From an uncultured Candidatus Saccharibacteria bacterium (GTDB taxonomy: Bacteria; Patescibacteriota; CALEFQ01), in contig OZ246404.1 of the NCBI GenBank assembly GCA_965230955.1, forward strand, positions 648,410 through 683,425: a stretch of 35,016 nucleotides of DNA. The letters run 5' to 3'. The stretch's first letter is position 1. Each line of letters opens with the position of its first letter. Below, piece after piece: positions 3,722 to 21,968 of this stretch. The translations under genes were made by a program, and so were the position numbers. The notes under the pieces were generated by a model. That model had not been told where the DNA came from, did no database searches, and saw nothing but the letters and a program-made list of their open reading frames with translations.

Positions 3722-3741
3722 CCTGCCTGCCGGCAGGCAGG
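3722..3741. repeat. Perfect 20 bp palindrome CCTGCCTGCCGGCAGGCAGG
   Basis: Read directly from the sequence. Confidence 0.9.
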
Positions 3742-19891: not shown

Positions 19892-21043
19892 TTACTTTCC
19901 ACTTTTCCGAAAAACTTGAAAGAGTTTTGCTAATTCCAAAGGAACTTCAGCCGTGGGCTTGGAAAAGGCGCAAGTTGCTAAAATACTCATCTTGGCCCGC
20001 AACATTTTCCCTGGATCGTTTTTAACCTGTCGATACAGTATTCGGATACTCTCGGGAGAATAACGCTCTAAGTGCAATTCCGAGAGAGGCAAACACTCAA
20101 ATAGATACTCAGAACCTTTGGCCTGCTCGATTTGGCCACGGCAGGCATCAATTAAAGATGTTTGTTTCATTATATTTAAAAAGCCAAAAAGACATCTTTC
20201 CTCCACCCCTCCTTCTTCAGCCAAACTTAGAACTTTTTTAGCAATACCTTGAATATCCAATTGCGGCTCCTTCTTCAGGTCATCAGCTGTCGTCTCCAAC
20301 CAATCTATCATTTCATCGACTTTGTGGCTGTCAACTCCGGGGCTGTTTTTTACAACATTAATCCATTTGTCTAATGGACGAGAAAAAAACGCTTCTTCTA
20401 CCAGCAAATATCTTTCCAGCTCACTGGGAATCGTCGCAAACTCCTGTAAAAGTTCTTTATTTCCCGTTAAAGACTTTTCTTTCATAATGCGGTAAATCTC
20501 TGCCAAAGGAGTATTAAGCTCAATACTAGGCAGCACCTTTCTAACATCCTGTATCATTTCTTGATGCGCCTGCCGGCTTCGTTCAAATAACTTATCGAAA
20601 TTAGTCCCGGTCCAGCTCTTTAGTTTTACTACGGGGACTCCATTTTCGAGGGCTTCAAAAGCAATACTGGCAGCCGTAACACCACAGAAGACTTCTCTGT
20701 ATTTTGAGTTCCACTGGATGTATTCCTGCTTTGTGAGATGCTCTTTTTGCCGATCAGGCAAATCATCATAGCCACTACTTTTTGACCATTCGCGTTCTAT
20801 TTCCAAAACTTGCCGAGCGAGTTCTGATTTTGAATCGTCAGACACCTGCCATTTATTCAGCTGGGAAATATGTTCAATTGCCTCGTGTAATTGCCTGGTT
20901 CTTTCAGATTCATAGATACCTACCGACTCCGCTTGGCGAATAATTTGCTTGGCATCGATGGGCACATATTCAAAAGATGGTTTTTCGCTGCTAACTGGTT
21001 CAATATATTCAGTTGGAGGTTCTAGTTCCTTTTTGTTTCTCAT
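19892..21043 (-). CDS. Hypothetical all-helical protein, no recognised family
   Basis: About 383 aa open frame, visibly AT-richer than the flanks; stop abuts the permease ATG (TAAATG); start 21043 or 21049 uncertain. Confidence 0.7.
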   Translation of the reverse strand: MRNKKELEPPTEYIEPVSSEKPSFEYVPIDAKQIIRQAESVGIYESERTRQLHEAIEHISQLNKWQVSDDSKSELARQVLEIEREWSKSSGYDDLPDRQKEHLTKQEYIQWNSKYREVFCGVTAASIAFEALENGVPVVKLKSWTGTNFDKLFERSRQAHQEMIQDVRKVLPSIELNTPLAEIYRIMKEKSLTGNKELLQEFATIPSELERYLLVEEAFFSRPLDKWINVVKNSPGVDSHKVDEMIDWLETTADDLKKEPQLDIQGIAKKVLSLAEEGGVEERCLFGFLNIMKQTSLIDACRGQIEQAKGSEYLFECLPLSELHLERYSPESIRILYRQVKNDPGKMLRAKMSILATCAFSKPTAEVPLELAKLFQVFRKSGK

Positions 21044-21166
21044 AAACACTGCTCTCTTTAGCGTATTTTAGAATAACAAATTTTTGATTGGCTCGTCGAT
21101 GAAATCAGGGCCAGCCTTCATCCAATTAGGATTGGATAGATGCCCAACCTTAGTTTGCCAAAGGCG

Positions 21167-21260
21167 TGGAACCGTTGGCTGGATTTGAACTTGCTTGCGC
21201 AAGCAAGCCGGCAACCACCTCCTTACCATGGAGGGACTTTACCCAAAGAGCTACATCGGC
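21167..21260 (-). pseudogene. Decayed tRNA-Thr(GGT) copy with an 18 bp palindrome inserted in the T arm
   Basis: Colinear with 21353-21428; anticodon arm identical; mismatches in acceptor, D and T stems; CTTGCTTGCGCAAGCAAG inserted between G53 and T54. Confidence 0.85.
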
Positions 21261-21352: not shown

Positions 21353-21428
21353 TGGAGCCGTTGGCCGGATTTGAACCGGCGACCACCTCCTTACCATGGA
21401 GGTGCTCTACCAACTGAGCTACAACGGC
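21353..21428 (-). tRNA. tRNA-Thr(GGT)
   Basis: 76 nt cloverleaf GCCGTTG/CAACGGC, CCTCC-ATGGTAA-GGAGG, TTCAAAT, encoded CCA. Confidence 0.97.
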
Positions 21429-21453
21429 CCGCCTACGCCAAGGCTTCGGCGGG
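21428..21453. repeat. Hairpin element type A abutting the tRNA-Thr(GGT) 5' end
   Basis: cccgcctacgccaaggcttcggcggg; 24/26 identical to 21623-21648. Confidence 0.85.
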
Positions 21454-21507
21454 CAGGCCCGAAGGTTGACGCAAAACGATTAACTTCAAAATAACTCACG
21501 ACGCTTA

Positions 21508-21547
21508 CTGGCTTGCCAGACGAAGCTCGGCCAAGCCGAGCGTAGTC
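21508..21547. repeat. Hairpin element type B abutting the tRNA-Thr(CGT) 3' CCA
   Basis: 40 nt, 38/40 identical to 21737-21776. Confidence 0.9.
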
Positions 21548-21623
21548 TGGAGCCGAGGGCGGGATTTGAACCCGCGACCTGCGCGTTACGAATGCGCTGC
21601 TCTACCAACTGAGCTACCTCGGC
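21548..21623 (-). tRNA. tRNA-Thr(CGT)
   Basis: 76 nt cloverleaf GCCGAGG/CCTCGGC, loop TTCGTAA, TTCAAAT, encoded CCA; A31-C39 mismatch. Confidence 0.93.
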
Positions 21624-21648
21624 CCGCCTACGCTAAAGCTTCGGCGGG
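21623..21648. repeat. Hairpin element type A abutting the tRNA-Thr(CGT) 5' end
   Basis: cccgcctacgctaaagcttcggcggg. Confidence 0.85.
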
Positions 21649-21736
21649 TAAACTCGCGAAGCACTAGCGCAGAAAGACCAACTGCCCTTCGGCAAATCCA
21701 GCTTGGTGCTGAAATCCAGCCTGAGCTTGCTAACGT

Positions 21737-21776
21737 CTGGCCTGCCAGACGAAGCTCGGCGAAGCCGAGCGTAGTC
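21737..21776. repeat. Hairpin element type B abutting the tRNA-Gly 3' CCA
   Basis: ctggcctgccagacgaagctcggcgaagccgagcgtagtc. Confidence 0.9.
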
Positions 21777-21850
21777 TGGAGCGGGATACCAGAATCGAAC
21801 TGGCGTCTTCGCCTTGGGAAGGCGGTATACTACCACTGTACTAATCCCGC
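21777..21850 (-). tRNA. tRNA-Gly(CCC)
   Basis: 74 nt cloverleaf GCGGGAT/ATCCCGC, loop TTCCCAA, TTCGATT, U73, encoded CCA. Confidence 0.95.
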
Positions 21851-21896
21851 ATTCTCTAGTTCCTCGCCTAAAAACGAAGAAATCCAACCAGAACGT

Positions 21897-21962
21897 TTCT
21901 TGGTTCATTTGATCTCGGTTCCGTGAAATCCCGCTCAGAACCGAGATCTATTGAACTAAGAA
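21897..21962. repeat. Long hairpin between the prsA-like gene and the tRNA cluster
   Basis: gatctcggttc/gaaccgagatc perfect 11 bp plus outer 10/11 bp arms. Confidence 0.75.
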
Positions 21963-21968
21963 CCGGTT

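Follow-up and report, generated by a model that had tools for sequence, protein, structure and literature searches.

Repetitive extragenic palindromes (REPs) are tagged palindromic repeats of the GTAG and CGTC super-families that form BIME and REPIN doublets and are associated with RAYT genes (PMC3733652, PMC2817692); each is a hairpin flanked on one side by an unpaired tetranucleotide tag (PMC3733652). Here we describe an element of this general kind, four copies of which lie on tRNA gene ends in a 35,016-nt stretch of chromosome (the window) from an uncultured Candidatus Saccharibacteria bacterium (contig OZ246404.1, positions 648,410–683,425; coordinates below are those of the window). Like a REP, it is an imperfect palindrome of 20–40 nt with conserved unpaired positions and a one-sided unpaired tetranucleotide tag; its copies appear extragenic and dispersed, occur singly, as inverted pairs or in arrays, lack coding capacity and are probably transcribed as hairpins. 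Unlike REPs, its tag is CARG (CYTG on the opposite strand) rather than GTAG or CGTC, and a single near-identical consensus spans more than 10 phyla, Patescibacteria included, instead of being lineage-specific. There is no RAYT gene in the window, nor any recurrent protein family or transposase beside the copies listed by our scans. The untagged end sits flush on tRNA termini with strict polarity, an arrangement not described in PMC3733652 or in a 2025 survey.

In placement the nearest analogy is to the GC-rich PstI palindromes which, as Yin, Heckman and RajBhandary reportedly found in 1981, flank Neurospora mitochondrial tRNA genes. Those too are short, lie on both sides of tRNA genes, and were long debated, as here, as processing signals or mobile elements; they differ in sequence (CCCTGCAGTACTGCAGGG) and in being organellar and confined to one lineage. 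We know of no report of bases shared with the tRNA, of a tag, or of a decoy arm (a spare copy of the first arm, described below) for Neurospora or other mitochondrial palindromes. Further mitochondrial hairpin elements, for example the RHE of sponges (PMC2800124), belong in the same comparison.

Three other systems bear comparison. The ends of IS200/IS605 elements (HUH Y1) are likewise imperfect hairpins, recognised as single-stranded DNA, with the target set by pairing to a short element-internal sequence. Guide-target pairing of that type would explain why the inner arm of the present element matches the bases it lands on; here, however, there is no transposase, and the unit is a single hairpin of ∼30 nt without two distinct ends. 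The leader-trailer stems of rRNA and tRNA operons, which are RNase III substrates, also place complementary sequences immediately 5′ and 3′ of stable RNAs, and in the relative L255 whole spacers form long helices ending at the tRNA boundaries. In the present case either half forms a hairpin of its own that includes a conserved internal loop, and the unit is found hundreds of times away from stable RNA genes. Integron attC sites resemble it only in general layout (stem, internal loop, variable apex), and the R″/R′ cores RYYYAAC / GTTRRRY are absent from the consensus.

Four copies of one element in a tRNA cluster

The tRNA cluster, called with ARAGORN and Rfam, lies on the minus strand and comprises tRNA-Gly(ccc) (21777–21850; Rfam tRNA score 62.6 bits), tRNA-Thr(cgt) (21548–21623) and tRNA-Thr(ggt) (21353–21428). 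In transcript order the region reads Gly, B1, spacer, A1, Thr(cgt), B2, spacer, A2, Thr(ggt), where A and B denote two forms of the hairpin. Thr(cgt) carries an element on each side; the 3′ end of Thr(ggt) has none.

On the minus strand, type A reads CCCGCCGAAGCTTTAGCGTAGGCGGG in A1 (21623–21648) and CCCGCCGAAGCCTTGGCGTAGGCGGG in A2 (21428–21453), and its last G is tRNA position 1; on the other strand, bases 21623 and 21428 are the complements of position 1 of Thr(cgt) and Thr(ggt), respectively. Type B reads CCAGACGAAGC-13 nt-GCGTAGTCTGG on the plus strand, at 21516–21550 and 21745–21779; read on the tRNA strand, its bases 1–3 are the tRNA's own CCA. The corresponding transcripts are CCA-GA-CUACGC-(UCGGC-UUC/UUG-GCCGA)-GCUUCG-UCUGG for B and CCCGC-CGAAGC-N4-GCGUAG-GCGG-G for A, the final G of the latter being tRNA position 1.

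The first-pass annotation had proposed four hairpins of one design on these tRNA ends, and this is confirmed by pattern counts, shuffles and a covariance model. The pattern GAAGC-N(3-20)-GCGTA has five matches in the window against 0.86 expected, a count reached in 0 of 100 shuffles, and all five fall within 21434–21773, in the four elements. A covariance model built from unrelated genomes and run over the 35 kb with filters off returned exactly these elements, A2 at 59.3 bits, B2 at 40.0, B1 at 39.8 and A1 at 38.1; the next best match scored 14 bits. The location originally given was right, with its end at 21776 three bases short of the end of B1 at 21779. The observation is real, and it opens onto more than was first seen.

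A2 (21428–21462, plus strand) has the full consensus form, CCCGC-CTACGC-CAAG-GCTTCG-GCGGG-CAGG-CCCGA. A1 (21623–21648), CCCGC-CTACGC-TAAA-GCTTCG-GCGGG with its pyrimidine-loop strand likewise plus, matches the model over positions 1–26 only and has no CARG tag; the tRNA transcript carries its purine-loop version. B1 (21736–21779, minus strand) presents the pyrimidine-loop version on the tRNA-sense strand. It begins with arm CCAGA (21779–21775), of which the CCA (21777–21779) is the 3′ end of tRNA-Gly(ccc), and continues through CTACGC, a 13-nt extension hairpin (UCGGC-UUC-GCCGA) and GCTTCG to arm TCTGG (21749–21745), tag CAGG (21744–21741) and decoy arm CCAGA (21740–21736). B2 (21507–21550, minus strand) is similar, with apex UCGGC-UUG-GCCGA, tag CAAG (21515–21512) and a partial decoy arm CCAGT (21511–21507), and has CCA 21548–21550 in common with tRNA-Thr(cgt). 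A tail outside the hairpin, CAGG or CAAG plus a repeat of the first arm, is thus found on every window element except A1. Two inverted pairs (B...A, like REP doublets) bracket both inter-tRNA spacers, with 96 nt between B1 and A1 and 62 nt between B2 and A2. The middle of spacer 1, between B1 and A1 (21649–21735, minus strand), is unrepeated elsewhere and is replaced or rearranged in a related strain.

Structure of the element

We searched for the element with two patterns. The genome scan (CTACGC-N(3-20)-GCTKCG-NCNGG-CARG-CC, one genome per species) contains no tRNA sequence and gave at least 120 loci, against about 20 matches estimated by chance. An independent metagenome scan (CCNGC-CTWCGC-N4-GCTWCG-GCNGG), in which the tail is not required, also gave at least 120. 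Counts for other genomes and metagenomes below refer to the matches listed by these scans. In 130 genome-scan matches the arms were complementary at 5/5 positions in 71 and at 4/5 in 30. A loose scan of viral contigs (CTACGC-N-GCTTCG-NCNGG) yielded chance matches only and was kept as a negative control: 5/5 arms in 1 of 119, mostly 0–2 of 5, and no docked copy.

A single element, present in both orientations, underlies types A and B. On the pyrimidine strand all four window copies read CC(C/A)G(C/A)-CTACGC-apex-GCTTCG-(G/T)C(G/T)GG, the outer stems of A and B being two compensatory changes apart, and the family consensus on that strand is 5′-CCNGC-CTWCGC-(YRAR or extension stem)-GCTWCG-GCN′GG-CARG-3′, about 30 nt, with hairpins of 26–35 nt. 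It comprises a covarying 5-bp outer stem, a conserved 3×3 internal loop, a 2-bp inner stem with variable apex, and a one-sided unpaired tag. In the outer stem the middle pair, which is free to vary, is Watson-Crick in 94 of 123 copies, compared with 61.8 ± 3.7 in shuffles. In an alignment that was itself fitted to the model, 94.2% of cells pair against 86.0% when shuffled, and 7 pairs show double changes. The ends of 4-nt apices covary (C..G 53, T..A 51) around AA or GA in the metagenome matches, and the longer apices of the genome matches form extension stems.

The internal loop, conserved and unpaired, is UWC/UWC on the pyrimidine strand and GWA/GWA on the opposite strand. Its forms in the metagenome matches were TTC/TTC (61), TTC/TAC (40), TAC/TTC (16) and TAC/TAC (7), so that the window's TAC/TTC is a minority form. 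The two W positions vary independently, indicating a genuine 3×3 internal loop, and the middle A-U is not selected to pair. The flanking G·A pairs of the loop, possibly sheared, could arise on the purine strand alone, and only in type A does that strand have tRNA sense. The GTAG noted at the junction facing the tRNA is not a conserved tag: it lies inside the internal loop, and its third base varies between A and T, with GAAG outnumbering GTAG. What serves as the unpaired tag is CARG, at the tRNA-distal end. In the metagenome matches the left flank is near random over positions −12 to −1, up to the first C, with no fixed target tetra- or pentanucleotide such as IS200/IS605 elements have, and C-A-R-G-C follows on the right. 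The unit is thus a hairpin that carries unpaired tag bases on one side only.

As inverted copies, A and B are complementary within one transcript. Predicted RNA folding energies are −21.7 kcal/mol for the B hairpin (B1) and −14.5 kcal/mol for the A hairpin, summing to −36.2, against −25.6 kcal/mol for the B:A duplex; local hairpins are thus predicted to win in the window. Asymmetry between G·U and A·C mismatches, looked at as an indicator of the transcribed strand, gave no signal (7 vs 8). A dimeric double-stranded DNA operator with direct repeats spaced by 11 bp was considered and rejected: apex lengths span 3–18 nt, with extension stems formed.

Distribution across phyla

Carriers belong to more than 10 phyla, among them many classes of Patescibacteria, Dehalococcoidia, Bacteroidota, Alpha- and Deltaproteobacteria, Planctomycetota, Verrucomicrobiota, Acidobacteriota, Omnitrophota, Babeliales, Armatimonadota and others. 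Some 35-mers are the same in more than one phylum, and the sequences on either side of them are unrelated. Other genomes hold 1–5 copies per 8-kb tile, with several such tiles per metagenome-assembled genome; the window has four in 35 kb, all at one locus. Between 72 and 89% of copies in the two scans are away from tRNAs. These lie between housekeeping genes, some as tandem arrays with a period of 32–37 nt, and show no orientation bias relative to protein genes by crude ORF calls. In L298 (1290–2250), units of ∼63 nt, rich in CGAAC/TTCGAAC, form a satellite-like array; four of them contain the hairpin element and their neighbors do not, which could serve as a natural filled-versus-empty comparison.

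No linked gene was found: all-against-all clustering of ORFs around 120 loci gave no recurrent neighboring protein family, and Pfam searches of array neighbors gave housekeeping genes only, no transposase. A strict viral scan produced 6 matches, none at tRNAs, and 5,426 E. coli genomes produced none. Matches to plasmids by blastn were GC-rich chance similarity with no tRNA nearby, and those to GenBank phages were partial and likewise due to chance. Against Rfam 15, only the tRNAs reached the gathering score, and the hairpins were unmatched even at E ≤ 10. Literature searches with the literal sequences found only an unrelated probe with 13 nt in common, and keyword searches found mitochondrial palindromes and REP papers, with no bacterial tRNA-docked repeat.

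Docking on tRNA ends

Docking was measured on 122 model matches in 100 genome tiles, which contain 82 tRNAs in 823 kb. The element overlaps a tRNA 3′ end in 22 of the 122 copies, by 3 nt in 20 and by 2 nt in 2; in 12 others it overlaps a 5′ end by 4–6 nt, in Gly, Pro and Leu tRNAs beginning GCGGG, CGGGG or GCCGG. The estimated chance expectation for such docking is far below one case. In the metagenome set 14 of 124 copies were at a tRNA end by ARAGORN, 11 of them flush on the untagged side. The share of copies overlapping a tRNA terminus is accordingly 28% in genomes and 11% in metagenomes, the overlap being the CCA at 3′ ends and bases 1–5 at 5′ ends. Docking at fixed offsets recurs across many phyla and is no local accident of the window. 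The first-pass annotation had named genome-wide spread without enrichment at tRNA boundaries as the outcome that would count against its proposal; copies are indeed widespread, and the boundary enrichment is extreme. We found no description in the literature of tRNA-end docking by this repeat.

Docking is polar. Copies at 3′ ends present the pyrimidine version on the tRNA strand, copies at 5′ ends the purine version, and the untagged end faces the tRNA; there was one exception, seen in two metagenomes. At the 3′ end the tRNA's CCA starts the first arm, and at the 5′ end the arm on the complementary strand is built from the tRNA's first bases. Neighboring tRNAs with a B...A pair between them, the arrangement of the window, are also found in Allosphingosinicella and in other Patescibacteria, and inverted pairs were noted in L130, L139, L208 and L260. 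A tRNA and an element moving together as one unit was considered and rejected: between phyla, the tRNA-Ser genes to which near-identical elements are docked have different anticodons and variable arms.

In Flavobacteriia (L136, L147, L212, L244) the element comes immediately after a −7 box of Bacteroidota type (TAtaTTTG). From this position it would start the tRNA transcript, so that the primary transcripts of tRNA-Arg and tRNA-Ser probably open with it. No metatranscriptome contained the window locus, and the RNA runs matched by one Flavobacteriia locus cover the tRNA alone.

A possible decoy for the tRNA end

Docked copies tend to carry a second copy of the first arm, 3–8 nt past the hairpin. 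In the metagenome set, which is unbiased with respect to the tail, this decoy was present in 9 of 14 docked copies and 22 of 109 others (odds ratio 7, Fisher p = 0.0012). In the genome matches nearly all 3′-docked copies read ...CARG-CCA(GC) and nearly all 5′-docked copies ...CARG-CCCGC. With the first arm repeated after the tag (CCAGA, CCAGT, CCCGA), the second arm can pair either backwards, including with the CCA, or forwards. Type B had been thought to sequester the CCA end of the precursor. The CCA does lie in the stem, but permanent sequestration is unlikely, since most docked copies have a second arm able to free it. We suggest that the decoy reflects selection: where the terminal bases of the tRNA form the first arm, a spare partner would let the acceptor end fold normally. 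Miniature inverted-repeat transposable elements (MITEs) have a target-site duplication beside their terminal inverted repeats. In the present element the hairpin arms act as inverted repeats, and a further copy of the first arm follows the tag (CCAGC...CARG-CCAGC) in docked copies but in only ∼20% of others.

Turnover among relatives

Relatives of the source organism keep the syntenic Gly-Thr-Thr cluster, and the elements in it turn over. The locus itself was found in wastewater metagenomes (DNA runs). In runs X5 and X6, from a related wastewater strain, 21612–21687 (spacer, A1 and 12 nt from the start of tRNA-Thr(cgt)) is tandemly duplicated, with a new 32-nt element, TCCTC-CTACGC-...-GCTCCG-GAGGA, at the join; on the B1 side of spacer 1 (21688–21768), 105 other bases stand in place of the original. 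An A copy precedes tRNA-Gly in L002 but not in the window. In L003 a B copy is retained on the 3′ fragment of an old tRNA-Gly with compensatory changes (CCAGCC/GGCTGG), and each of two tRNA-Thr 5′ fragments (bases 1–20, truncated in the D loop) is fused to a hairpin element and a decayed anticodon arm. In L260 the cores of a B...A pair have changed together (TTCGA..CTCAG vs CTGAG..TCGAA). L255 has no local hairpins; instead each spacer folds as one long helix running from 2 nt past CCA to the base before the next tRNA (−90.3 kcal/mol, z = −4.5), with CUACGC/CUUCGC on one arm and GCGAAG/GCGUAG on the opposite arm.

Other observations were made at these loci. In L003 (7092–7280, 7783–8000), whose peptidyl-prolyl isomerase (PPIase) is 73% identical, a different tRNA-Gly(ccc) allele is inserted upstream of the old gene. 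L255 (1–368, 5242–5604) has a reverse-transcriptase (RVT_1) gene ∼4 kb upstream of the syntenic tRNA cluster, and its spacers contain repeated CUWCG / CGWAG pentamers. In L257 (2727–2906, 2983–3100, 3525–3640) another trailer element of ∼75 nt (CGTCGTAC...long hairpin...GTACTCC) follows each of three tRNAs, and is itself followed by a second, terminator-like hairpin. A second palindrome family, CCTGCCTGCCGGCAGGCAGG, occurs in the window at 3722–3741 (2 overlapping matches vs 0.02 expected). In L003 (7202–7221) and L004 (1690–1709) this 20-mer is embedded in the T loop of what remains of a tRNA-Gly, and in L257 (2985–3004) it directly follows the CCA-CG of a tRNA-Thr; a one-base variant, CCTGCCTACCGGCAGGCAGG, is found in L002 just before the A-type element upstream of tRNA-Gly. 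Logan short-read contigs from the source organism and its relatives (L001, L002, L005 and L006) end in or beside the tRNA/hairpin cluster, and the repeats thus appear to break assemblies.

Surroundings of the cluster in the window

The window is an ordinary chromosomal region of Patescibacteria (Candidate Phyla Radiation), with genes including MutS, MutL, LepA, MurJ, ExoVII, DivIC and DUF4012; none of its genes is a mobile-element gene. A parvulin-type PPIase gene, with homologs labelled Patescibacteria, adjoins the tRNAs. Between it and tRNA-Gly is an imperfect inverted repeat (21894–21965; 28-nt arms, 86% complementary), probably the PPIase terminator, at whose place relatives have a palindrome with GTAG...CTAC ends. 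About 90 nt downstream of the intact tRNA-Thr(ggt) is a tRNA-Thr(ggt)-like pseudogene (21170–21260, minus strand; 24.7 bits, below the Rfam cut-off), with a perfect 18-nt palindrome, CTTGCTTGCGCAAGCAAG (21190–21207), inserted in its T arm and one mismatch in its acceptor stem. A 385-aa ORF (19892–21049, minus strand) lies between the tRNA cluster and an amino-acid permease gene; it has no Pfam match and is absent from the syntenic position in L255 and L257.

Possible origins of the docked elements

Our best explanation, held at about even confidence, is that these are a REP-like family of tagged palindromic repeats that prefers the edges of tRNA genes, is transcribed there as leader and trailer hairpins, and is tolerated through the decoy arm. 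That they are a REP-like micro-element was one of two options offered at the outset, and it is supported by the copies far from tRNAs, the arrays, the inverted pairs and the strain-level gain and loss. The repeat would spread as selfish DNA in hairpin (single-stranded) form, served in trans by an enzyme that is possibly HUH/RAYT-like; HUH-type single-strand transposition is our leading guess for mobilisation. The inner arm of the element may pair with target ends resembling CC-N-GC. A copy at a tRNA gene would then become part of the precursor transcript, as a leader or trailer hairpin, until RNase P and 3′ trimming remove it, and docked copies would survive selection mainly when the decoy (X′-CARG-X″) can free the tRNA's own end.

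Several points weigh against this explanation. The mobilising activity is hypothetical, as no transposase, HUH or reverse-transcriptase gene is present in the window or recurs beside the copies listed. A near-identical 35-mer across phyla is unusual for classical REPs, which are lineage-specific and co-evolve with RAYT. The docking points are the ends of mature tRNAs, a boundary set at the RNA level, and the strict polarity also fits an RNA function in leader and trailer; exact, polar docking at RNA-defined ends is the fact that a mobile-DNA view explains least well. Syntenic loci of distant relatives keep structured boundaries while their sequence changes, which could reflect selection for RNA structure. 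No clean pair of empty and filled sites was recovered among the relatives compared, and insertion itself was not observed. Copies in the source genome were counted in the 35-kb window only.

In another explanation, possible though on balance unlikely, the hairpins are dedicated signals for pre-tRNA processing or insulation and act as RNA. The complementary purine leader and pyrimidine trailer would form local folds or anneal to one another, with each spacer closed or each tRNA enclosed as a result, and so present the mature ends to a conserved nuclease (RNase III-like or other) or keep neighboring tRNAs folding independently. This would account for docking exactly at mature 5′ and 3′ ends with near-absolute polarity, purine upstream and pyrimidine downstream. 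It is also consistent with the enrichment of the decoy arm in docked copies, with the joint change of B and A cores in L260, with the L255 spacers, each a single long hairpin bounded by tRNAs, and with the Flavobacteriia element that probably starts the tRNA transcript right after the −7 box. The mutual complementarity of A and B points the same way, although in the window the local hairpins are predicted over the long-range duplex. A processing signal does not readily explain why most copies listed are away from tRNAs, without orientation bias relative to genes, or why the window has one tRNA end without an element and its relatives many. Its geometry would have to vary, the tRNA 5′ overlap being 1 nt in the window and 4–6 nt elsewhere, and copies interrupt tRNA genes, leaving pseudogene fragments.

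A bolder idea, rather improbable over both its versions, is that the element marks mature tRNA ends because tRNA molecules, and not DNA, direct its placement. Either a reverse transcriptase would join it to the 3′ CCA of a tRNA or to the end of a tRNA cDNA, with recombination of the product into the gene, or the conserved GWA/GWA (UWC/UWC) loop would be recognised by a widespread novel nuclease that defines pre-tRNA ends in Patescibacteria, Chloroflexota, Planctomycetota, Verrucomicrobiota, Acidobacteriota and others.

One specific form of RNA-templated docking, very unlikely in our estimation, would have a chimeric cDNA recombine into the tRNA gene, much like the tRNA insertions of the Neurospora Mauriceville retroplasmid. 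A reverse transcriptase might extend the mature tRNA 3′ end, its CCA pairing with the ...UGG 3′ end of element RNA, or a template switch from the tRNA 5′ end to the element might occur as ...CCCGC cDNA pairs with ...GCGGG. The appeal of this scheme is that one rule, the pyrimidine strand always continuing from a 3′ terminus, would place the joint at the mature tRNA end and account for its microhomology, 3 nt (CCA) at one end and 4–6 nt at the other; it could also explain the elements joined to tRNA 5′ fragments that end in the D loop or at position 12, and L255 does have its reverse-transcriptase gene near the tRNA cluster. The window has none, however, and none recurs near the copies listed, most of which are away from tRNAs in any case. 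Transcripts of both element strands, or several separate steps, would be required, and no poly-A, non-templated bases or other retro-signature was seen.

Ordinary features, whether intrinsic terminators after tRNA genes or chance GC-rich palindromes, can be set aside as highly improbable: these are GC-rich hairpins in non-coding DNA beside highly expressed genes, but two of the four are upstream of tRNAs, none of the four has a U tract after it or scores as a terminator-like site, no T run follows the docked copies listed, and the internal-loop sequence is conserved across phyla, with chance excluded by the shuffles and the control scan.

Significance

In practical terms, these repeats appear to break short-read assemblies at tRNA clusters and can be misread as regulatory RNAs linked to tRNAs. 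Patescibacteria, with their small genomes, are usually described as having few mobile elements. If the REP-like explanation is true, a third super-family of tagged palindromes would stand beside the GTAG and CGTC REPs, nearly unchanged across very distant phyla. Its flush, polar docking and built-in decoy would make it a selfish repeat that coexists with tRNA maturation or has been co-opted by it. It would also offer an entry to tRNA precursor processing in uncultured lineages, and to the question of why tRNA clusters there gather gene fragments and replaced genes.

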